A stretch of DNA of 64,000 nucleotides from an uncultured Methanosarcinales archaeon (lineage in GTDB: Archaea; Nanobdellota; Nanobdellia; Woesearchaeales; ARS49). The notes below the pieces were generated by a model that searched no databases, was not told the origin of the DNA, and saw only the letters and a list, made by a program, of their open reading frames with translations. Position numbers and translations under genes: made by a program. Below are positions 4,972-43,390 of the stretch, one piece after another (positions within the stretch are counted from its first letter, which is position 1; each line of letters begins with the position of its first letter). The stretch lies in NCBI GenBank assembly GCA_964637115.1, contig CAZWVL010000001.1, positions 32,001 to 96,000 on the forward strand. Direction: 5' to 3'.

Positions 4972-5033
4972 TACAGATAAAAAGATAACGTGCAATAAAA
5001 GAGTTCATAGTCACGAGAGAGTTAAAGCAGAAT

Positions 5034-5927
5034 CTACAAAGCTGATCTGTCAGCTTTACGTCCAGGATCAACGTATTTCAATACCATCGTTTCAGCAACT
5101 GTTTCAATCTTGCTACCAACCTGTCTATCGCTCCTATGCAAAGGCTGATAAATGGTTAAATGCAAAGCAGGGCCGAAACGGCTGTTTCTGGCAGGAGTTG
5201 ATGAAGCAAAATCATTGCGAATATCTATGCCGAATCTTTTTCCAAACTCTGCCAATGGGAATCCAGCAAGTTCAGCCTTTTCAGCCATTTCATAAAAGAG
5301 CGCCACTTCCTGAACGGAATTGTACAAATTAACTATTTGGCTCTCTGCTTCGGGTGTAAAGTCTCCGTTAAATGTCTTTTTTAAGTGAACCTGAGGCAGC
5401 ACTGCATAATCTTGAGGTTTTATTTTAAACTCTGGAATCGTTTCGTATCGATCAGATAATTTCATCACATCGCACAGCTCTTTCAATTTCATTCTAGGCA
5501 AAAGACCAGAAACAGTTCCTATAAAACTCAATTCAGCAGAATATGATTGCCCAGGGAAGTCGCCTTGATAAGGAATTATTTCTTTTGAATAATGCCATGT
5601 CTTGAAAATAGGCAGGCCTGCACGAGTTACGAATACACCTCTCCCTTTTCTGAAATCCAAATCAGTGCTGGATTCGGCGTTATAGAGCTCACGTTCAACC
5701 CGTGAGTGTTCAAGTCTGACAGGAGGATTATATTCAAACCTTGCTTTGTATGAATGTTCTCGTGCTTTCCCATTAGATTTGGCTTGGCCATCGCTAAGAG
5801 TCACGTTCATCCGGGAAGAAGTAAAATTTTGGGAATTAGCACGCAATATTCTGCCAGTTTGTTTTAATTCCACTTCAGGCAACGTAAAATTCAGTGCAAC
5901 CGCTGCTTCCAAAGTCGATATAAACAT
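5034..5927 (-). CDS. hypothetical protein
   Basis: 297-aa ORF, no recognised motif. Confidence 0.65.
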   Translation of the reverse strand: MFISTLEAAVALNFTLPEVELKQTGRILRANSQNFTSSRMNVTLSDGQAKSNGKAREHSYKARFEYNPPVRLEHSRVERELYNAESSTDLDFRKGRGVFVTRAGLPIFKTWHYSKEIIPYQGDFPGQSYSAELSFIGTVSGLLPRMKLKELCDVMKLSDRYETIPEFKIKPQDYAVLPQVHLKKTFNGDFTPEAESQIVNLYNSVQEVALFYEMAEKAELAGFPLAEFGKRFGIDIRNDFASSTPARNSRFGPALHLTIYQPLHRSDRQVGSKIETVAETMVLKYVDPGRKADRSAL

Positions 5928-5993
5928 TTTTATCCCCAGGTCCGGGCTGCCCTTTTGGTATAAAAGCTTTATTGTAATGCCGTATACTAGAAG

Positions 5994-6455
5994 TTACCTA
6001 AACGTCCCAACCATAATGCCCTTTACATTCTCATATGGAACCAGCCATTGGTCCGAGTCAGGATTTGCAGTACCTTTTGTTTGATAATATGTCTTGCCAT
6101 CCTGTTTTGTTATATCAATAACCATGTGCAAGACAGTGCCGGCAACAGAAGGCTCGTAGAACGAAATCACATCGCCAACGCGAATCTCATCAGCAGATTC
6201 TGGAGTTTTCTCAAACACAACAGAATCGTGCGTGATTAAAGGCGCCATAGAGTCAGAACTTACTTTTGCGTACTTCAAACCCGGATAATCAATCTGCACC
6301 AGGTCTTCAAATACCTTGATAGCATCAAAAGGAATCCGCTGCGTGCTCTCCACTACTGCATTAGTTGTGGCAAGTCGTGTTTCAGCAGGGAGAGGCACTT
6401 GCAGCGAGAAACCTAATAAAAAGAATACGATTGCTATTAACACCCCTTTAATCAT
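5994..6455 (-). CDS. S26-family signal peptidase I-like protein (SEC11-type Ser-His)
   Basis: N-terminal TM; VSSDSMAP (Ser), GDVISF, VLHMVI (His), YQTKGTAN..D boxes. Confidence 0.8.
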   Translation of the reverse strand: MIKGVLIAIVFFLLGFSLQVPLPAETRLATTNAVVESTQRIPFDAIKVFEDLVQIDYPGLKYAKVSSDSMAPLITHDSVVFEKTPESADEIRVGDVISFYEPSVAGTVLHMVIDITKQDGKTYYQTKGTANPDSDQWLVPYENVKGIMVGTFR

Positions 6456-6600
6456 ATGAACCCCTAATTAACCCCATTTCAGTTAATACACTGACGCATT
6501 AAAAAGATTCATTGTCACGACTGAGTGAAACGGCAAAGAAAGCTGTACCAGTATACAAAAAAGTAACCTTTTTATAGTAGCCTGACTAACACTGCTTGTG

Positions 6601-6640
6601 AAAAGAGAGCATCGCCAAACAAGTTTGGCGGGTCTTTTTT
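6601..6640 (+). promoter_or_regulatory. hairpin with U-tract in predicted 5' leader
   Basis: cgccaaac(6613-20)/gtttggcg(6623-30) perfect 8-bp stem, extended by aaaagaga/tctttttt; downstream of TATA-like aacctttttata (6565-6576). Confidence 0.4.
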
Positions 6641-6663
6641 ACTTTGTAAAAAAAGGTGAATGA

Positions 6664-8520
6664 GTGAAGGCGGTAACCCTACTGATATTATTGTTGCTTG
6701 CGACAGCTGCACATGCAGCAAGTGTCACGTTAACGCCAGCAACAGTATACGAAACAACAAAAGCGTGGCAAACGCTAAGTGTTAACAATTACAAAGGCAG
6801 CTCCATAATTTCTAAAGTTACCGTAACATCTCCTGATTTGCTGATAACCGGGGCAGAGACTTATCTTGGCTGGACAACAACCCAAACAGCTTCTGTCGCA
6901 GAATGGAAAAACGGAAGCATTGGAAGCAACATTAAAGACGCAGCATTCGAATTTGAAGTAAGCGCTCCAACGGTAAGCGAAAATACGACTGCAGATGTAA
7001 CAGTATCGTTTGATTCTTCTAACAATGGAATGACTATCACCATACTTAATGATGCAACACCCCCAACAATCACAAACATAAAACCAAACGACTACGCAAA
7101 AGCAAACAATCCAGCACAGCCAGTTAGCGTTAACGTCACTGACGCTGAGACAAGCGTGTCAAGCGTTACTTATTCCTTCAACAATTGCCTTAGTGGAGCA
7201 GACACGAACGTTTCACTGACAAAAACAGGAGACCTGTATACAGGCACGGCAGACTTTACTGCATACGACGAAGGAATGAAAGCGTGCTACAAAATAATTG
7301 CGAAGAATGCTCCGGGAGAAGTTGCAACAGTAACAGGTGAATTATTATTTGACGGCACAGCACCAAGCGCTTCCATAATTTCACCAACAGGATTTGCCAC
7401 AGAAACAACAGACTTTGTCTTTAACGCAACAGACAACATTGCAACGACATTATCCTGCGAGCTAAAATTAGGCACGACAACACTTGACACAGTAAATGTT
7501 GCTAATGGCACAACAGTAACTGTAGGAAAAAACCTGAGCAGCTTTGACGAAGGCAGCCAGACGTGGACAGTAACGTGCACAGACGGAGTGGGATTGAGCG
7601 TGACGCGCGCGCAGGCAATATTACTTGACAAACTGCCCCCATCAATAACTCTCGAATACAACTCAATGGTTCCACGAACAACATCGAGCCAGTTCACAGC
7701 AACAGTGGTTGATACGGTTGGACTGGCAAGCGTAAACGCAACATTTGACGGAAATACAGCAATGTTAGCACAATCAGGCAACACGTTCACGGGCAGCTTC
7801 AGCTCAAACACGCTGGGAACGAAAACCTTGACTATTGAGGCAAAGGATGACGCAGGACACATTGCAATAAAGACAGTTGATGTCGTAATTGTGCCAAATC
7901 ACGTCCTCACACTCAGCTTATCGCCATCAAATGCGAACCCTGGAGAAACAATAACGGCATCAGGCACGCTAACTGCAGACGGTAATGTGTCTGTTAACAA
8001 AGTGATTGTGAAGAGTCCAAGCGGTGACGACATTGTTGACTTGAGCGGCAATGATTACTCAAGTACCTTTACTGCACCAAGTGCAGGAACTTACGTTATA
8101 ACAGCAGAGTTTACTGAAGGCGGATACACGTACAAAGCAAGTGCAACATTGACAGTGGCTGGAGCAGGACAACAACAAACATACTACCAAAACGGAATTG
8201 GCGCAGAAGCGTGGAGAACAAGCGGCTACGTCAAACCAGATGAAGAACCACAACAAAACCCTGACGGAAATGGCAACCAGCTGACAGAAGAGACTCCTCC
8301 ATCAGCAGCACCAGCAGAATACGAACCACTGCCACCAGAAGAACCACGCTCGGCTATCACGCCAAAAACAACAGGCGTCTTTGACCTAGGCGGAACAATC
8401 AAATGGCTGGCATTACTATTAGCACTCGCACTGTTGATTGGACTTGGCACTTATGCCTGGAACAAGCGCGGCAAAAAAGAAGACGGCATAGACTGGAACG
8501 GCTATTTCAAGCAAGACTAA
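6664..8520 (+). CDS. cell-surface protein with Ig-like repeats and C-terminal TM anchor
   Basis: Signal peptide, T/S/N-rich beta domains with D.T.P boundaries, P/E-rich linker, C-terminal hydrophobic helix plus basic tail. Confidence 0.8.
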   Translation: MKAVTLLILLLLATAAHAASVTLTPATVYETTKAWQTLSVNNYKGSSIISKVTVTSPDLLITGAETYLGWTTTQTASVAEWKNGSIGSNIKDAAFEFEVSAPTVSENTTADVTVSFDSSNNGMTITILNDATPPTITNIKPNDYAKANNPAQPVSVNVTDAETSVSSVTYSFNNCLSGADTNVSLTKTGDLYTGTADFTAYDEGMKACYKIIAKNAPGEVATVTGELLFDGTAPSASIISPTGFATETTDFVFNATDNIATTLSCELKLGTTTLDTVNVANGTTVTVGKNLSSFDEGSQTWTVTCTDGVGLSVTRAQAILLDKLPPSITLEYNSMVPRTTSSQFTATVVDTVGLASVNATFDGNTAMLAQSGNTFTGSFSSNTLGTKTLTIEAKDDAGHIAIKTVDVVIVPNHVLTLSLSPSNANPGETITASGTLTADGNVSVNKVIVKSPSGDDIVDLSGNDYSSTFTAPSAGTYVITAEFTEGGYTYKASATLTVAGAGQQQTYYQNGIGAEAWRTSGYVKPDEEPQQNPDGNGNQLTEETPPSAAPAEYEPLPPEEPRSAITPKTTGVFDLGGTIKWLALLLALALLIGLGTYAWNKRGKKEDGIDWNGYFKQD

Positions 8521-9330
8521 ATGGTGCTGGAACAATTCCTTGACAGAAAGTTTGTTGTCCAGCATACCTTCTTCGTTTTTATTTTAAGCGCTTTGTACGT
8601 ATTTGTTGCATATGCAGTAGAGTACTTGTTCTTTCCCAATCAAGGGCTTGCAATAGTTCTTCTTGTTACTATATTGCTTGTTCCGAGCCTGCATCATCTT
8701 GTTGTCATAGAAGAAAAACTGGAAAGCAAAGGAGCATCACATTTCTGGAAAAGACACAAAACCATAATACAATGCTATGTAGGGGCATTTCTTGGCCTGC
8801 TGGTTGGATTTCTCATCCTGGGCTTTGTAAATCCATCAACACTTGATTTTCAAAGAATACAGCTTGAACAAGAACACCTGAAGCCGGAAATTATCTCAAC
8901 ATTCTTAGGCCAGCCATACGAGCCAGACATGGCAACAACTATCGCTTTATTTTCACACAACATAATGTATCTGCTGATAGGCTTTGTATTATCAATCTTT
9001 TATGGTGCGGGCGCGATATTTCTTGTAACGTATAACGCATCATTCTTTGCAGCATTTGTGATAGAGTTGTTTAGCAAATGGGCAGCTGCAGGACAACTTG
9101 CGGCTGTTTCACTTGTTCATTTGCTGCCTGAGAGTGCTGGGTACATTTTAACAGCGATTGCAGGAGCAGAAATATCACGCGCACTAATACACGAAAAAGT
9201 AACAGGAGACGCGTTCAGAAACGTGCTGAAGAACTGCTTCTTGCTGCTGGTATTTGCTGTTTTGTTTGTTCTTTTGGCAGCGTTCCTGGAAACGTATGTG
9301 ACTGCGACGTTTTTTCATAGTGTTATTTGA
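8521..9330 (+). CDS. SpoIIM-family (stage II sporulation protein M-like) membrane protein
   Basis: Multi-TM; FSHN...LSIFYGAGAIFLVTYNAS and VHLLPESAGYILTAIAG; LLAAFLETY tail. Confidence 0.75.
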   Translation: MVLEQFLDRKFVVQHTFFVFILSALYVFVAYAVEYLFFPNQGLAIVLLVTILLVPSLHHLVVIEEKLESKGASHFWKRHKTIIQCYVGAFLGLLVGFLILGFVNPSTLDFQRIQLEQEHLKPEIISTFLGQPYEPDMATTIALFSHNIMYLLIGFVLSIFYGAGAIFLVTYNASFFAAFVIELFSKWAAAGQLAAVSLVHLLPESAGYILTAIAGAEISRALIHEKVTGDAFRNVLKNCFLLLVFAVLFVLLAAFLETYVTATFFHSVI

Positions 9331-9457
9331 TAATTTCCGGGTTTTTTGATATTTTCTGTAAATCTTCCAGACACACTCGTAAAGTTTACAATTTCTTCGA
9401 CGAAAGAAACTTTAAGGAGTAAAACAAATAGAAAAATGCTGGCTAACGCCAGCAAAC

Positions 9458-9574
9458 GCCGGCGACGGTAAATCAGGTTTACCAGCAGCTTGAGCAGCTG
9501 TGACCCGTAAGGGTTTCGGGGTTCAAATACTTTTCGGTTGCTGGTCCGAAAGGTTGACAATCCCCGCGCCGGCG
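9458..9574 (+). tRNA. non-canonical type II tRNA, anticodon GAG (nominally Leu), with 33-nt intron at 59/60
   Basis: Acceptor GCCGGCG(9458-64)/CGCCGGC(9567-73) plus G73; D-stem GGTAAA/TTTACC; anticodon stem GCAGC/GCTGT with loop TTGAGCA; V-arm GACCC-GTAA-GGGTT; T-stem CGGGG/CCCCG. Removing 9528-9560 restores T-loop TTCAAAT (84 nt mature, no encoded CCA). Confidence 0.75.
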
Positions 9575-9643
9575 CACATTTTAACACTGAAATAAAGCTT
9601 TGAATAAATGGGGGTTTGAACTGGAGGAAAGGGCGAGGTTTCC

Positions 9644-9657
9644 GAAAGATTTAAATA
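9644..9657 (+). promoter_or_regulatory. BRE-TATA promoter
   Basis: gaaagatttaaata, 25 nt before ATG 9683; identical 14-mer at 24434. Confidence 0.65.
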
Positions 9658-9660
9658 CTA

Positions 9661-9682
9661 ATTGTCACTATAAAGTGACAAT
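9661..9682. promoter_or_regulatory. palindromic operator candidate
   Basis: attgtcact-ataa-agtgacaat, perfect 9-bp inverted repeat between TATA box and start codon. Confidence 0.5.
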
Positions 9683-10828
9683 ATGGTGGTTTCACAAGGG
9701 TTGCTGGAACGTGTACAACAGCTAAAGCAGGAATATGGCATCGGCTCCAAACAGGCGTTTGAATATGTTTCTGCGATACAAAAATACGATGCTCTACTCA
9801 CCAAAGTGCAAACTTCTCAAATTAAACTTCAAACCTCTATGGACCAGCTCAATAGCTTGATGGGCATACGGAAACAGAAAAAAAACAGCACGCCGTCAGT
9901 CGACGAACTCATCAATGTCTGTGACACTTTCCGGCTCGTGTTCAGGGGCTTAGACGTGCGTGACGTGGCAGATTCGCCCAAAAAGGACTTCACGCACACA
10001 TTTGCGATCTTGCAATCCTGCTACAGCGGCACTCCTGCATATCACGTGCTAGACACGCCTGCGCTTGATTCTTTTCTTACGGAGCAAATGCATAAAGCGT
10101 GCGCGGCAGACCCTGCCCAGCGCAACAAACTCATCAACATCACAAAAAATCTGTATGAGCTCGTGGTTTACAACTATTTCATTGAAGAAAGACGTCAGCC
10201 GGTCACTGAAGAAAAACAACTCCGTGGTGTTGCTAAAGCAATCACTACGTCTTTTGACGTGAATCCACGTAGCCTGCATAGAAGGCTAAGAAATCTGGAT
10301 TCCCTGCGCGCCATTGACTCGCTTTCGCTGAAAGACACGCTATACGGAATGCACGGTCATCTGATCGAGCTTGAAGGCATTCCTGGGGACCGGCTTTCGT
10401 GCTACGCGCGCGGAGTACTTGAACAGACCTTGCACTCCGTTGATACCGAACGGCGCATTGCACTGCAGTATATCCGTTCCACGACAGACACTACGCTTCC
10501 GAAAGACGTGCGTATTTCTAATGCGCTTAAGGAACTTGGCAAGGAACTGCGCCTAAGTAGGGTGCCGACTTTTGACCTCATGGATGGTGATGCGTCTGAG
10601 CCTGACTTTGATGAAGGTGTTGCGTTTTGTGCGGGCCGCAAGAAAGCAGATGAACTAGAGAGTTTCAAGCCTGTGCCTGTCGTAAAACGCTCAGCCGAAA
10701 GCATTTATCCTCTTCTTCGTGGAACAGCCACACGCCAAGAAGCACGGGACTACCGCGCGAATGAAGCGACGTACACCACGCGCGCAATTCTTGAAAATGC
10801 AAACTGGTTAAAAAAAATACTCTCTTGA
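9683..10828 (+). CDS. hypothetical helical protein
   Basis: 381-aa ORF with own promoter; no recognised motif. Confidence 0.7.
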   Translation: MVVSQGLLERVQQLKQEYGIGSKQAFEYVSAIQKYDALLTKVQTSQIKLQTSMDQLNSLMGIRKQKKNSTPSVDELINVCDTFRLVFRGLDVRDVADSPKKDFTHTFAILQSCYSGTPAYHVLDTPALDSFLTEQMHKACAADPAQRNKLINITKNLYELVVYNYFIEERRQPVTEEKQLRGVAKAITTSFDVNPRSLHRRLRNLDSLRAIDSLSLKDTLYGMHGHLIELEGIPGDRLSCYARGVLEQTLHSVDTERRIALQYIRSTTDTTLPKDVRISNALKELGKELRLSRVPTFDLMDGDASEPDFDEGVAFCAGRKKADELESFKPVPVVKRSAESIYPLLRGTATRQEARDYRANEATYTTRAILENANWLKKILS

Positions 10829-10845: not shown

Positions 10846-13203
10846 CTATTTCTCGGTTAGTAATTTATCGTACAATGATTTTGAGACTCCCTTTTTGAGT
10901 TCTTTATCAAGTTGTTCCATGAATTGTTCCCGTTGAGAAGGCGGTGGAAGTCGCATCCGTAATTTAAATTCATCCTCATCCATCCTTCCAGCCTCATACT
11001 GCTTAGTTACCTCAGCAACATACTTGTCTTCTGCAATCCGATTTCTTTTCTTATCAACTTCACGTTTCACATCCTTATTTTTAAGAATGCTTTGTTCGCT
11101 GTCAAACGCGTCTTGTGCATTTGCTTTTGTGTATTCTGTCAAGTCCTTGTAAGTTTTTTCATCAAGTGGAATCTTTCTCAATATGGCATCATCAGGAGTT
11201 TCCAATATTTTTTCAATGCTCGTCATCATTTTTTTCCATTCAATTCCCGTCTCGGGTGTAATATCCTCTTCGCTTCCAGAAAAAATGTCAATTTCGTCCA
11301 GGACACACGCACGGCACACGCGCCTATATGCTTTAACACGCGCGTCGATATCGCGCACGCCCTGCATCGTACGCTGTTCTTTATACATATTATACTCTTT
11401 CGTTACTCGTGCGTGTTCCTTCTGCGTATCAACCTCGTACAAACGTTCCACTGCCAAGGCCAATGCTTTTTCTGCTTTAGCAAAATCTTTTTCCTTATAT
11501 GCTCCCATTGCTTCAACAATCTTCTCGTATGCGCTGGCTTTTTTGGCTGCATAATCATTCTTTGTTTCAAACTCTTTCACCAAAACATCCAGCTCGCGTC
11601 TCTTTTCCTCACTTTTCTTTTCTTGGCTGAAATCATCTTTCTTCCAATCCTCAGCCAATTTCAATGCTTTATTGTAACTTTCAAAGACGCTGCTGATAGT
11701 TTTCTGATGATTGGCCAATGTAGCAATGTCCACGCTGTTACGCGACATTTCAATAAGGCTCTTCTGCCTCAGAGTTTCGTATGACTTATTCGCTGCTGCT
11801 CTTATTGCATCTGCGGTAGACACGCTGGAATTTATCTCTGCAATATAATTTTCAACACGCACATTGCGTATACGTTCAGGCTCTTTGGCTTTATGCAATG
11901 ACGTGGCAAGCGCAACAAGTGCGCCAGAAACCGCTGCAGTTGCCAACCATTTCAGACCCTGCTTTCTCAACCTTCTTGTAGTAGGCACAATGAATGACGT
12001 TATTGGGCGTGCTTTAATGCGCCTGCCATCCATCCAGCGCTTCAAATCATCATAAAATGCATTTGCAGACTCATAACGCTTATCGGGATCCTTTGCAGTA
12101 GCCTTGTGAACAATTGCTGCCAGATTCCTGTCAACCTTTTTGTTAAGAAGACGGATGTTTGTTGGGATTCCATTAAGAATAGTTGCGGCACGTTCAGCAA
12201 AGCTTTGGCCTTGGAAGTTATGCACGTATTCCCCTGCCAACATATGATACAATGTTGCACCAATACCAAACACGTCAGTTCGTACATCAACAGGATCAGT
12301 GCCGCTTACTTGTTCAGGCGCCATGTAAGCAAGCGTGCCGACGGTCATTGTACTTTCCTGCTTCTTAATCAGCATTGCAAGACCATAATCAGCCAGCGTC
12401 GCCTTATCTTTATTCTTTTCTTTATCTTTATACATGATATTTCCTGGTTTGATGTCCCTGTGCAGAATTCCTTTATCATGTGCGATTTCAAGCTGCTCTG
12501 CAACTTGAATCACCGTGTTTACGAAATAATCTATGTCAGCTTGGTTGCAGATATACTCTATCTTAGGCTCCCCAGCCGGTACTTCTTCCTTTTTTACAAT
12601 CTTCGTGAGATTTCTCCAAATGCCTGAAGAGGTGGGCACTCCGAACTGCTTATCCATCCGATTTTTAGCTGAGCCGCCTTCAAGCAATTCCATTGCGATA
12701 AACATGTTTCCCTTCCATTCAGAAAAGTCATAAACTTGGAGTATGTTTCTTCCTTGAAGGTTCGCAAGTGAAGTTGCTTCAGTCTCAAATTGCTCAAGTT
12801 CTATAGGAGACGCATTGGTGTTCTTCAAAAACTTCAATGCCACCTGCCGTTTTAATTTAATATGCCGTGCACGGTAAATAATTCCGCTCGCTCCTTCTCC
12901 AATATAAGTTGTATTGGACTCCTTGTCCGGGTTTTCTTCAATTTGATACGCGTCAACCCTGTCGCCCACTTTCAATTTCTGCAAGTCAACCGGCGGATTA
13001 ATCTGTTCTGCAGCACCAACAACAAGCGTCTCCAAGGGCCCGGCACCTTGCGCTTCAGGCGTTGGTTTCGGTGGCTTGGGACCGATGGATGCGTCAAGCA
13101 ACGATTCATCTATATTTTTCAGGAAGTCTGGGAGGCTGCTTTCTTGACCTGCATTCTGGCCTTCTTCTTGAGGCCCGTCAGTCGAATCCTTATCATCCGG
13201 CAT
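10846..13203 (-). CDS. Hanks-type (PknB-like) membrane Ser/Thr protein kinase
   Basis: GEGASG, VALK, HRDIKPGN, DYGLA, GTLAYMAPEQ, DVFGIG; hydrophobic segment WLATAAVSGALVALA then long helical C-terminal region. Confidence 0.92.
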   Translation of the reverse strand: MPDDKDSTDGPQEEGQNAGQESSLPDFLKNIDESLLDASIGPKPPKPTPEAQGAGPLETLVVGAAEQINPPVDLQKLKVGDRVDAYQIEENPDKESNTTYIGEGASGIIYRARHIKLKRQVALKFLKNTNASPIELEQFETEATSLANLQGRNILQVYDFSEWKGNMFIAMELLEGGSAKNRMDKQFGVPTSSGIWRNLTKIVKKEEVPAGEPKIEYICNQADIDYFVNTVIQVAEQLEIAHDKGILHRDIKPGNIMYKDKEKNKDKATLADYGLAMLIKKQESTMTVGTLAYMAPEQVSGTDPVDVRTDVFGIGATLYHMLAGEYVHNFQGQSFAERAATILNGIPTNIRLLNKKVDRNLAAIVHKATAKDPDKRYESANAFYDDLKRWMDGRRIKARPITSFIVPTTRRLRKQGLKWLATAAVSGALVALATSLHKAKEPERIRNVRVENYIAEINSSVSTADAIRAAANKSYETLRQKSLIEMSRNSVDIATLANHQKTISSVFESYNKALKLAEDWKKDDFSQEKKSEEKRRELDVLVKEFETKNDYAAKKASAYEKIVEAMGAYKEKDFAKAEKALALAVERLYEVDTQKEHARVTKEYNMYKEQRTMQGVRDIDARVKAYRRVCRACVLDEIDIFSGSEEDITPETGIEWKKMMTSIEKILETPDDAILRKIPLDEKTYKDLTEYTKANAQDAFDSEQSILKNKDVKREVDKKRNRIAEDKYVAEVTKQYEAGRMDEDEFKLRMRLPPPSQREQFMEQLDKELKKGVSKSLYDKLLTEK

Positions 13204-41027: not shown

Positions 41028-41573
41028 ATGGAAAAGAAAGACACCAAAAACGACAAGAAAGAGCCCTCTGAAATAGAGCAACTCAAAGCAGAGTTGGCTA
41101 AAAATCAGGCAGTCATTGCAGACTACACTGAACATTTGAAAAGACTGCAGGCAGAATTTGAAAACTACTGCAAAAGAGTAGAAAAAGAACGCAAAGAATA
41201 CGCAGGAATGGCATCAGAAAAGCTGATTGTCAAGCTCCTGCTAATCATAGATGACTTTGAACGCGCCCTGGTGACGATAAAAAGCGTACCAGAAGAAGCG
41301 CGAAAAGGCATCGAAATGATTTTCAAAAATTTACACAAGATTTTGGATGAAGAACAAGTTCATAAAATACATGCTCTCGGGCAAAAATTTGACCCGTACA
41401 AGCACGAAGTCCTGCTCAAAGTGGAAAGCGAGCAGCCTGAAGACATTGTTGTTGAAGAGCTCCAAAAAGGCTACACAATGAACGGCAAGGTCATCAGGTA
41501 TGCAAAAGTAAAGGTTAGCAGCGGCAAGCAAAGCTTGCCAGTGGGTGCTGGAAAAGCCAGTGGAGGCAAATAA
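41028..41573 (+). CDS. grpE: nucleotide exchange factor GrpE
   Basis: [34 protein letters not shown]...VIRYAKVKV; alternative start 41013. Confidence 0.95.
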
Positions 41574-41575
41574 AC

Positions 41576-43390
41576 ATGTCAAAAGAAAAAATAATCGGAA
41601 TTGACCTAGGAACATCAAACTCTGCAGCATCCGTATTGGAAGCAGGCAGGCCAAAAATAATTCCTTCAGCAGAAGGAGTATCAATGTACGGCAAAGCATT
41701 CCCGTCATTTGTAGCTTTTACAAAAGATGGACAGCTATTAGTAGGAGAGCCGGCAAGACGACAAGCAGTTTCTAACCCGCACGGTACTGTTTACGCTGCA
41801 AAAAGAAAGATGGGCACGAATTTCAAGTACCAGATTCACGGCAAAGAATACACGCCGCAGCAGATTTCTGCATTTATTTTACAGAAAATCAAAAAAGACA
41901 CGGAAGCGTTCTTAGGAGAGCCGGTCAAGAAAGCAGTCATTACAGTGCCAGCATACTTTGATGACAACCAAAGACAGGCAACAAAAGACGCGGGAACAAT
42001 CGCAGGACTGGAAGTTGTTAGAATTGTGAATGAGCCAACAGCAGCCGCGCTCGCATATGGCCTGGACAAAGCAGGCAAACAACAGAAAATTCTCGTCTTT
42101 GACCTTGGTGGAGGCACTTTAGACGTTACCATAATGGACTTCTCAGAAGGAGTGTTTGAAGTTGTTTCAACATCTGGAGACACGCAGCTGGGCGGAACAG
42201 ACATGGACAATTCCGTGATTAATTACATAATCAACGAATTCAAGAAAGAATCAGGCATAGACCTGAACGAAGACGCTGTAGCAATGCAGCGAATTAGGGA
42301 AGCGGCAGAAAAAGCGAAAATTGAACTCAGCACCACGCTTGAGACAGAAATCAACCTGCCATTCATAACAGCGACACAGGCAGGGCCAAAACACTTGCAA
42401 ATGAAATTCACCCGAGCAAAGCTCGATGAACTTGTTGACCCAATAGTCAAGCGTTGCAAGAAATCAGTTGACCAGGCGCACTCAGACTCAAAACTTGGAG
42501 TAAAAGACCTGGACAGAGTTGTTCTTGTTGGAGGACCAACAAGAATGCCAATCGTTCAAAAATACTTGGAACAATGGTTCGGCAATAAGGTAGAAAGAAG
42601 CATAGACCCAATGGAATGTGTAGCTATGGGCGCGGCAATCCAGGCAGGAGTGCTTGCAGGAGAAGTTAAGGATATATTGCTTTTGGACGTAACTCCACTT
42701 AGCCTTGGAATTGAGACACTTGGCGGCGTGTTTACCAAATTAATTGAACGAAACACGACCATTCCAGTAAAGAAAAGCCAGACATTCAGCACTGCAGCAG
42801 ACGATCAGTCAGCTGTTACTATTAGAATCTCACAAGGAGAACGACCAATGTTCGCAGACAACAAGCCCTTGGGACAATTCGACCTTGTTGGAATCCCGCC
42901 TGCACCGCGAGGAATACCGCAGATTGAAGTAGCGTTTGACATAGACGCGAACGGAATCCTGAATGTTTCTGCAAAAGACTTAGGCACTGGAAAAGAACAA
43001 AGCATGAGAATAACCGCTCCAAACAAGCTTGATGCTGCAGAAGTAGAGAAAATGAGAAAACAGGCAGAAGAGTTTGCAGAAGTTGACAAGAAAAAGAAAG
43101 AAGAAATAGAAACAATCAACCACGCAGACACGTTAGTCTACACTGCAGAAAAGCAGATGAAAGACTTTGAAGGCAAAGTAAGCGAAAAGGAAATAAAGGA
43201 CGTCAAGGATAAGGTAGATGAGCTGAAGAAATTGCTTGCAGAGTCACCACGCGACCCGGCAAAAATCAAGAAAAAGCTTGATGAGACAAATCACGCCTTG
43301 CACACAGCTGCAACTGCATTATATCAAAAGGCAGGCGCAAAAGGCAAAGCACGACCGGCAGAAGACGTGGTGGATACGGAAACCGTATAA
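41576..43390 (+). CDS. dnaK: Hsp70 chaperone DnaK
   Basis: [48 protein letters not shown]. Confidence 0.98.

Follow-up and report, generated by a model that had tools for sequence, protein, structure and literature searches.

What is encoded at positions 9458–9574 of a 64,000-nt stretch of DNA from an uncultured archaeon of the Woesearchaeales (GenBank assembly GCA_964637115.1, contig CAZWVL010000001.1, positions 32,001 to 96,000 of the forward strand; hereafter the window)? A sequence-only reading had taken this 117-nt plus-strand segment for a chimeric tRNA with a leucine anticodon, a serine-like acceptor end and a tRNA-Sec-like core. Standard annotation gave no tRNA: ARAGORN made zero tRNA calls in the unspliced 64-kb window, Rfam gave no match in the window at the gathering score and none in 9250–9750 at E ≤ 10, and the RF00005 model also failed at the locus when it was run over the whole genome. 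We conclude that 9458–9574 is a real intron-interrupted tRNA gene with structure far beyond chance, which these searches missed because an intron lies in its T-loop. The family to which it belongs is widespread, multi-copy and apparently undescribed. Our preferred reading, to which we assign a probability of about 0.5, is that the candidate is a functional non-canonical tRNA gene, a tRNA-Ser paralogue with a GAG anticodon whose product is probably serylated and is a weak decoder of NUY codons. Transcription, splicing, serylation, ribosomal use and any benefit to the host are inferences from sequence.

A tRNA gene interrupted in the T-loop

The unspliced RNA folds into a 7-bp closing stem and four hairpins (z = −5.3 relative to shuffled sequences). 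The fourth hairpin, CGGGG-UUCAAAU...CCCCG, is a perfect T-arm broken by 33 nt. When the RNA was spliced in silico at tRNA position 59/60, a 7-nt T-loop (UUCAAAU) was formed, ARAGORN at default settings called a class II tRNA(GAG) of 84/85 nt, and the minimum free energy structure was a cloverleaf (z = −4.7 relative to shuffles). The 7/5 cloverleaf proposed earlier is therefore correct once the 33-nt T-loop insert (9528–9560) is removed, and incorrect for the 117 nt as they stand. The sequence-only reading had left this insert out of its description of the tRNA and listed it on its own.

Exon 1 (9458–9527) was taken from the cloverleaf call, and all of its arms are backed by covariation. It contains the 5′ strand of the acceptor stem (9458–9464), A8 and C9 (9465 and 9466), the D-arm (9467–9483), the anticodon arm (9485–9501), with loop UUGAGCA, anticodon GAG at 9492–9494 and C37 at 9495, a variable arm of 15 nt capped by a GUAA tetraloop (9502–9516), the 5′ strand of the 5-bp T-stem (9517–9521) and T-loop residues U54 to A59 (9522–9527), at which the exon ends. 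Exon 2 (9561–9574) follows the 33-nt intron at 9528–9560 and consists of U60 (9561), the 3′ strands of the T-stem (9562–9566) and acceptor stem (9567–9573), and the discriminator G73 (9574); CCA is not encoded. The acceptor stem is GCCGGCG/CGCCGGC, with G1-C72, C2-G71 and C3-G70. These three pairs and G73, together with the GAG anticodon, long variable arm, C37 and A8, had all been read correctly from the sequence at the outset. The 6-bp D-stem of that reading can indeed be drawn in this copy, with 6–7 bp (RNAfold draws 7), but the conserved form in the family is a 4-bp D-stem and a 9-nt loop with A14 and G18G19.

The intron lies inside a bulge–helix–bulge (BHB) motif. The motif at the exon–intron junctions is of the 3-4-3 hBHBh′ type, with a UUCA/UGA(A/C) central helix, two 3-nt bulges and an inner helix. 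In the candidate these elements are a UUCA/UGAC central helix (3 bp and one U·C mismatch), two AAU bulges and a 9-bp inner helix, and a cut between bulge bases two and three places the intron at 59/60. Among 26 homologues, 98% of central-helix cells held pairs and covariation was evident in the inner helix, and the pattern TTCAAA...TG[AG]A-NN-T was kept in 97 of 109 family members.

A genome search identified a single splicing endonuclease, EndA (in the region C4:108203–108463), a 175-residue protein with N-terminal and catalytic domains that appears from its sequence to be of an α4-like form. The α4 endonuclease requires a strict 3-4-3 hBHBh′ BHB motif (PMC3239211). Numerous host tRNAs have introns at 37/38, and the tRNA-Lys(UUU) gene (contig C7:45574–45689, minus strand, outside the window) has two introns, at 37/38 and 59/60, the latter with the same geometry as that of the candidate. 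ARAGORN misses this gene at default settings and miscalls it when relaxed, while RF00005 sees only its 5′ part, at 23.9 bits, which is below the cut-off. Because tRNA-Lys(UUU) contains a 59/60 intron and the α4 form of EndA suits the strict motif, we conclude that T-loop introns are routine in this genome. Removal of the candidate's intron is plausible on the same sequence grounds.

A multi-copy family under structural constraint

BLAST comparison of the locus with 60 relatives gave matches in 19 of 61 genomes, with up to 8 per genome. The homologues were full-length and shared the architecture of the candidate, with different anticodons. When 26 of them were aligned, 90% of base-pair cells held standard pairs, compared to 37–50% when partners were slid by 1–3 columns, and both partners had changed in 25 of 42 pairs. 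These data back each of the acceptor, D, anticodon, variable and T stems, as well as the BHB central helix and the inner helix of the intron.

We built a covariance model, R1, without genomes flagged as unpublished. Of 77 genomes from the same taxonomic family (0–12 copies per genome), R1 found family members in 37; within the genus, 9 of 14 genomes are carriers. An even sample of 151 genomes from across the order contained 33 with hits, one of them with 14 copies. The census tallies include the unpublished genomes G010, G081 and G023 (taxonomic family) and G196 and G187 (order), and no conclusion rests on them. Alignments A1–A3 and A5 exclude unpublished genomes; alignment A6 includes locus L216, apparently the same contig as G010:C65, and this one member changes nothing. 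With every arm covarying and the tertiary bases near-invariant (see below), the decaying pseudogene that the sequence-only reading had allowed for is unlikely.

Family members are 73–80% identical, compared to 92–96% for canonical tRNAs, indicating faster evolution. On a tree built with the anticodon loop masked, G18, G19, U54, U55, C56, A57, A58 and U60 changed only 0–4 times each. These near-invariant bases make tertiary contacts, and the pattern therefore fits only a spliced, L-shaped tRNA. U21 was found in 9 of 13 members with A8 and in 9 of approximately 72 with U8, which looks like covariation in the 8-14-21 tertiary triple, although these sequences are related and not independent. Against more than 100 intact copies, a single clear fragment (L031) was observed.

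Tandem pairs of family genes about 700 bp apart were also observed (G090, QZIM01000002.1), at 5005–5124 and 5702–5819 for L077 and at 5024–5145 and 5816–5935 for L075. The two genes of each pair have different anticodons (GAG with GAA, and GAA with GUC), which suggests local duplication followed by anticodon change.

Position −1 can pair with 73 in 25 of the 26 members, and −2 with 74 in 18 of 26. An 8/5 structure formed by leader–trailer pairing was considered and rejected, because G73 does not vary and the −1 pyrimidine is shared by canonical tRNA-Ser genes.

A 21-base pattern covering the T-arm and BHB had no matches in a collection of viral contigs. In a genome collection, all matches confirmed by the covariance model were on records labelled Woesearchaeota, Nanoarchaeia or 'uncultured archaeon'. 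The model confirmed none of the bacterial matches, whose number was close to chance expectation.

A serine-type body

When R1 was run on the host genome, scores were 115 bits for the candidate, 63, 60 and 51 bits for the three tRNA-Ser genes, and 35 bits for tRNA-Leu(GAG). Pairwise alignment of the spliced candidate gave scores of 26 and 20 to tRNA-Ser versus 10–12 to tRNA-Leu. G73 is present in 89 of 90 aligned family members, and the candidate's 15-nt variable arm has the length and GNRA loop type of local tRNA-Ser rather than the CUUAGUG loop of tRNA-Leu. Seryl-tRNA synthetase (SerRS) recognizes its tRNAs by G73 and the long variable arm, independently of the anticodon (PMC7609411). The candidate thus has the discriminator, the long variable arm and the closest body of a tRNA-Ser and lacks the serine anticodon (NGA or GCU); it differs from a tRNA-Leu in having G73 instead of A73, a GUAA variable loop, and C37 instead of G37. 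That a leucine anticodon is joined to serine-type identity marks, as had been proposed, is borne out by these comparisons.

Inspection of 40 order-level R1 hits identified 9 genuine tRNA-Ser genes (GGA, GCU, CGA and UGA) with the same T-loop intron, and 31 genes with non-serine anticodons. As genuine tRNA-Ser genes in the order share this intron, the simplest history is that the family arose from an intron-bearing tRNA-Ser. The family would then consist of tRNA-Ser paralogues with drifted anticodons, more than 100 such genes, and not of a recombinant of three tRNAs. The supposed chimera is accordingly replaced by a drifted-anticodon paralogue of an intron-bearing tRNA-Ser. The tRNA-Sec-like core also had to be abandoned: the acceptor/T helix is 7/5, the anticodon differs from UCA, a search of the 98% complete host genome did not find SepSecS, and A8, U21 and a long D-stem occur only in a minority subgroup.

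The anticodon rule

We tallied the 109 members whose anticodon is non-serine and sits in a 7-nt loop on a clean 5-bp stem. The most frequent anticodons were GAG (27), GAA (22), GAU (17), CAG (11), GUC (6), GAC (6), CAA (4) and AAG (4), with rarer others. A35 was present in 96 of the 109 and G34 in 81; U33 was found in 95 and C33 in the remaining 14. Position 37 was A in 70 members, C in 33, U in 4 and G in 2, so that 37 members have a pyrimidine at this position.

The anticodon label had almost no phylogenetic signal, requiring 54 changes on the tree compared to a mean of 58 (minimum 52) for shuffled labels. Positions 33, 34 and 35 changed 12, 18 and 10 times, respectively, whereas position 36 changed 41 times, a rate exceeded only by the 42 changes at the middle base of the 3′ bulge of the intron. 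We conclude that selection keeps an L-shaped, spliceable, Ser-marked tRNA presenting U33-G34-A35 and is indifferent to position 36. In decoding terms the rule corresponds to any NUY codon, i.e. codons for Leu, Phe, Ile and Val.

The host tRNA set and the meaning of CUY codons

The host genome is 1.27 Mb in 27 contigs, with 43% G+C and 98% completeness. A normal tRNA-Leu(GAG), whose existence had been left as a question by the sequence-only reading, is present at C16:2425–2510 with A73, G37 and a Leu-type variable loop, so the candidate is not the only decoder of CUY codons. A73 and the CUUAGUG variable loop occur in all four canonical Leu tRNAs of the genome, and G37 in the three intron-less ones that were read. 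U33 and a purine at 37 are found in 29 of 29 intron-less canonical tRNAs, and the Leu and Phe decoders have G37. Canonical tRNA-Leu(GAG) is 92–96% identical in G001, G032, G025 and G017, each of which also has family members with GAG. BLAST found canonical tRNA-Ile in all of five multi-copy genomes and tRNA-Phe in two of the five. As the canonical tRNA-Leu(GAG) coexists with the candidate and the distribution of the family is patchy, the candidate is an extra and not an essential gene; the family tRNAs are additional to the standard set rather than an essential replacement.

The host tRNA inventory is incomplete. Approximately 8 expected tRNAs, including Tyr-GUA, Ala-UGC, Ser-GCU, Leu-UAG and further CAU tRNAs, were not found by ARAGORN, Rfam or simple scans, the last of which gave mostly noise; these are multi-intron genes or unassembled. 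One region outside the window (C7:58144–58321, plus strand) contains a CAU anticodon stem–loop followed about 90 nt on by GAGGGTTCAAATCCCC, and may be a heavily interrupted tRNA-Met or tRNA-Ile2, approximately 0.9 kb from tRNA-Asp. We found no tmRNA in the genome, which together with the numerous 37/38 introns marks the host as an archaeon, and no small-subunit rRNA was detectable in the assembly. The genome search identified one SerRS gene (C10, 424 residues), four class Ia enzymes with an Anticodon_1 domain and four class IIa enzymes, with no extra synthetase of class Ia or IIa. LeuRS is a 949-residue protein encoded on C14.

DnaK (window 41519–43390) contains 19 CUY codons. Orthologue residues specified by non-CUY codons at these sites were Leu in 68 of 82 cases, with Met in 9, Phe in 2, Gly in 2, Tyr in 1 and Ser in none. 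Because these sites are mainly Leu and never Ser in orthologues, CUY means Leu in the host, and genome-wide recoding, which had also been doubted on the basis of DnaK at the outset, is unlikely. CUU and CUC are not rare codons, together accounting for 33 per 1000 codons and 36% of Leu codons in the genome.

Expression signals and genomic neighbourhood

The tRNA gene occupies a 352-nt intergenic gap between plus-strand open reading frames (ORFs) at 8521–9330 and 9683–10828. A TATA-like word read from the sequence, TTTAAG (9411–9416, plus strand), lies approximately 45 nt 5′ of tRNA position 1 and may be the promoter. It is followed by a plus-strand leader hairpin, GCUGGC-UAAC-GCCAGC (9438–9453), and a plus-strand TTTT run (9579–9582), 5 nt past G73, is a likely archaeal transcription stop. 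Across 88 members, TATA-like words formed a main peak at about −30 (44 members) and a second peak at −50/−55 (20 members). The second peak corresponds to a subgroup with a small covarying leader hairpin, the candidate included. Leader hairpins of different sequence are present at the same place in L005, L006, L008 and L023 and are absent from most members; they possibly function in leader processing or stability. The candidate's hairpin also scores as a terminator-like site on the minus strand. TTTT was found within 20 nt downstream in 54 of the 88 members.

No conserved partner gene was evident: when ORFs within ±5 kb of approximately 82 loci were clustered, no family was present at more than 7 loci. 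A Pfam search of the 149 nearest-neighbour proteins revealed no enrichment for integrases, transposases, toxin–antitoxin systems or tRNA enzymes, and these neighbours are a mix of housekeeping genes. A three-gene block at 5994–9330 of the window lies beside a family tRNA also at L127, L089 and L113, i.e. in four genomes of two genera. It encodes proteins of 153, 618 (with weak Filamin-like hits) and 269 residues (a SpoIIM-like membrane protein), and the tRNA, with anticodon GAG, GAG, GAU or CAA, is found at different ends of the block.

The 381-residue product of the downstream ORF (9683–10828) is without a Pfam or NCBIfam match. A perfect 9-bp palindrome, ATTGTCACT-ATAA-AGTGACAAT (9661–9682), ends one base 5′ of the start codon of this ORF and resembles an operator site or a translation-blocking hairpin. 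Approximately 1.3 kb downstream of the tRNA gene, a minus-strand ORF (10846–13203) encodes a 785-residue protein with a Hanks-type Ser/Thr kinase domain, for which the best NCBIfam hit was PknB-like (E = 8.5e-53) but fell short of the curated cut-off. Nothing was found to connect this protein with the tRNA.

Discussion

The serylated-decoder reading predicts the following pathway. Transcription would begin at the gene's own TATA-type promoter and pass through a short leader with a hairpin, and the α4-like endonuclease would excise the 33-nt intron at 59/60, restoring the UUCAAAU T-loop and the L-shape, after which the ends would be trimmed and CCA added. The single SerRS of the genome would then charge the tRNA, recognizing G73 and the long variable arm and ignoring the anticodon. 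The product would occasionally read CUC and CUU in competition with canonical tRNA-Leu(GAG), leading to a low rate of Ser at Leu codons. Weak decoding would be expected because C37 replaces the G37 of real Leu decoders. The missing G37, frequent pyrimidine at 37 and occasional C33 of the family would dampen decoding, a behavior that would resemble the tempering of mistranslating tRNA-Ser variants in yeast (PMC6827378).

Several observations weigh against this pathway. Serine is a harsh replacement at hydrophobic positions and CUU plus CUC are common, such that up to 14 genes per genome are hard to square with fitness. Serine charging alone leaves the A35 constraint and the free position 36 unexplained, and avoidance of harm fails to account for the A35 rule because Ser at hydrophobic positions is the most damaging choice. 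In addition, the candidate has U·C where 84 of 90 members have U-A in the 4-bp BHB helix, and this mismatch may impair cleavage by a strict α4 enzyme.

A first alternative is that the tRNA is produced, perhaps even charged, and selected for something other than decoding. The anticodon loop would then be a protein recognition site. The tRNA might be a decoy, or sponge, that occupies an anticodon-loop nuclease or modification enzyme aimed at G34-A35 decoders (Leu-GAG, Phe-GAA, Ile-GAU and Val-GAC), or it might donate seryl groups outside the ribosome. The 12, 18 and 10 changes at positions 33, 34 and 35, compared to 41 at position 36, resemble an enzyme recognition site, and queuine tRNA-guanine transglycosylase, which reads U33-G34-U35, provides a parallel. 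Loss of the purine at 37 and some C33 also suggest that efficient decoding is not selected. We nevertheless regard such a role as unlikely, if worth serious attention, as the conservation of the acceptor stem, G73 and T-arm is that of a tRNA used in translation, there is no linked partner gene (the best neighbour cluster was found at 7 of approximately 82 loci) and the 149 neighbours show no Pfam enrichment; moreover, a pure acyl donor would place no constraint on the anticodon. The A35 rule itself would be explained if the family were charged with leucine or with the amino acid specified by each anticodon, the products being near-neutral or correct decoders of hydrophobic codons. All NUN codons specify similar hydrophobic residues, 96 of 109 anticodons read codons with U in the second position, and a shift between Leu, Phe, Ile and Val codons would have mild effects as long as the residue brought in was hydrophobic. 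LeuRS too accepts class II tRNAs without reading the anticodon, for which the nematode nev-tRNAs provide a precedent (PMC3333845). What makes this explanation distinctly improbable is the near-universal G73 of the family and the absence from it of the A73 and CUUAGUG variable loop of the canonical Leu tRNAs in this genome. The Leu, Ile, Val and Phe synthetases classically need A73, the body is closest to tRNA-Ser, and no spare synthetase is available.

A decaying or neutrally drifting, functionless tRNA-Ser duplicate would account for the patchy distribution and variable copy number, the low identity within the family relative to canonical tRNAs, the near-random anticodon (54 steps versus 58 shuffled) and oddities such as C37, C33 and A8. 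We give this explanation only a slim chance: compensatory changes maintain all helices across families of the order, the tertiary bases, G73 and BHB are near-invariant, the promoter position is conserved, A35 is constrained beside a free position 36, and more than 100 intact copies stand against one fragment. A selenocysteine-like or other recoding tRNA, with a 13-bp acceptor/T helix and long D-stem and reassigning CUY, might be suspected from A8, the possible 6–7-bp D-stem in this copy, G73, the long variable arm and the ability of base −1 to pair with G73 in 25 of 26 members. However, the stems are 7/5 with a 5-bp T-stem rather than the archaeal 9/4, the anticodon is GAG instead of UCA, SepSecS was not found in the 98% complete genome, the family does not conserve the long D-stem, the pyrimidine at −1 also precedes canonical tRNA-Ser, and CUY sites in DnaK are Leu; the idea is highly improbable. 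We give almost no credence to a minus-strand small RNA ending at the terminator-like hairpin (9454–9437), even though the minus strand folds equally well (z = −5.3) and a stem and U-run directly follow the structure. This candidate was rejected as the tRNA hallmarks, namely the GGUUCAAAU T-loop, the G18G19 D-loop, the GNRA variable loop and the 7-nt anticodon loop, are on the plus strand only. The hairpin is also absent from most family members, and bacterial-type intrinsic terminators are not the rule in archaea.

Natural tRNAs whose charging identity contradicts the anticodon are rare, and the known cases (yeast tRNA-Ser(CAG), nev-tRNAs and allo-tRNAs) have each been informative. Here the phenomenon would take the form of a conserved multi-copy family across an order of ultra-small archaea, with a fixed A35 and free position 36, a sharp rule that any functional model must explain. 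If the tRNAs are serylated and used, their hosts live with, or make use of, Ser at Leu, Phe and Ile codons, with implications for how accurately organisms with reduced genomes must translate, for the beginnings of codon reassignments and for hidden diversity of DPANN proteomes. A bolder idea, which is speculative and rather unlikely, is that Woesearchaeota and related DPANN maintain, under selection, a variable set of up to 14 serine-charged tRNAs per genome aimed at hydrophobic NUY codons, or anticodon-loop decoys against toxins that cleave G34-A35 tRNAs. If true, the serine-charged set would be a natural tunable mistranslation or conflict system that could, for example, degrade the synthesis of membrane and secretory proteins in a competitor, virus or host, or produce statistical surface proteins; as arsenal or as decoys, the tRNAs would have a biological role that is new for Archaea. 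For annotation, the T-loop intron hides the family from standard pipelines, and a finder that allows for introns and names genes by anticodon would call its members Leu, Phe or Ile. Genetic-code engineers might also take an interest in this anticodon-blind, intron-gated scaffold.

The literature that we searched, which was covered in part and is not proof of absence, contained no archaeal equivalent. The closest parallel for the intron is in ARMAN-2, where pre-tRNA-Cys and pre-tRNA-Pro have introns at 59/60 (Fujishima et al. 2011, PMC3239211), the same position as in the candidate family and with the same BHB logic, and where interrupted genes likewise escape standard tRNA finders. However, the ARMAN-2 tRNAs are ordinary isoacceptors whose identity matches the anticodon, whereas in the candidate family the two are mismatched, and ARMAN-2 combines a broad-specificity ε2 enzyme with relaxed motifs (PMC3239211), in contrast to the α4-like enzyme and strict 3-4-3 motif found here.

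With respect to identity, the yeast tRNA-Ser(CAG) of the CUG clade is, like the candidate, a serine tRNA with a leucine anticodon, and CAG is the fourth commonest anticodon in the family. Peculiarities of the yeast anticodon loop are thought to temper its action, a further likeness. In yeasts one rare codon is reassigned or has fixed dual coding (stochastic CUG decoding in Ascoidea, PMC6041473), whereas the family has many anticodons per genome and an archaeal host in which codon meaning is unchanged. The nematode nev-tRNAs (Hamashima et al. 2012, PMC3333845) are also lineage-specific class II tRNAs in which the anticodon mismatches the charging identity, and they too coexist with the standard code and canonical tRNAs. 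They are derived from tRNA-Leu, charged with Leu, have Gly or Ile anticodons and tend to match codons that are rarely used (PMC3333845), unlike the family, with its Ser-type body, G73 and common codons, which accordingly falls outside the nev-tRNA class.

The bacterial allo-tRNAs (Mukai et al. 2017, PMC5389517) share with the family the long variable arm, G73 and diverse non-serine anticodons, as well as patchy occurrence and a tendency to be missed by standard annotation, and some of them insert Ser in E. coli. They have 8/4 or 9/3 acceptor/T helices and are bacterial and intron-less, whereas the family is archaeal and 7/5, with a 59/60 BHB intron; its 7-bp acceptor and 5-bp T stems both covary. 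Allo-tRNA anticodons favour UAU, GCG and GUC, in contrast to the bias toward G34-A35-N36 observed here, and allo-tRNAs are often near toxin–antitoxin genes (PMC5389517), whereas the family shows no linkage to toxin–antitoxin or mobile elements. The family would therefore work like an allo-tRNA, with serine marks joined to a non-serine anticodon, and yet is not a member of that class.

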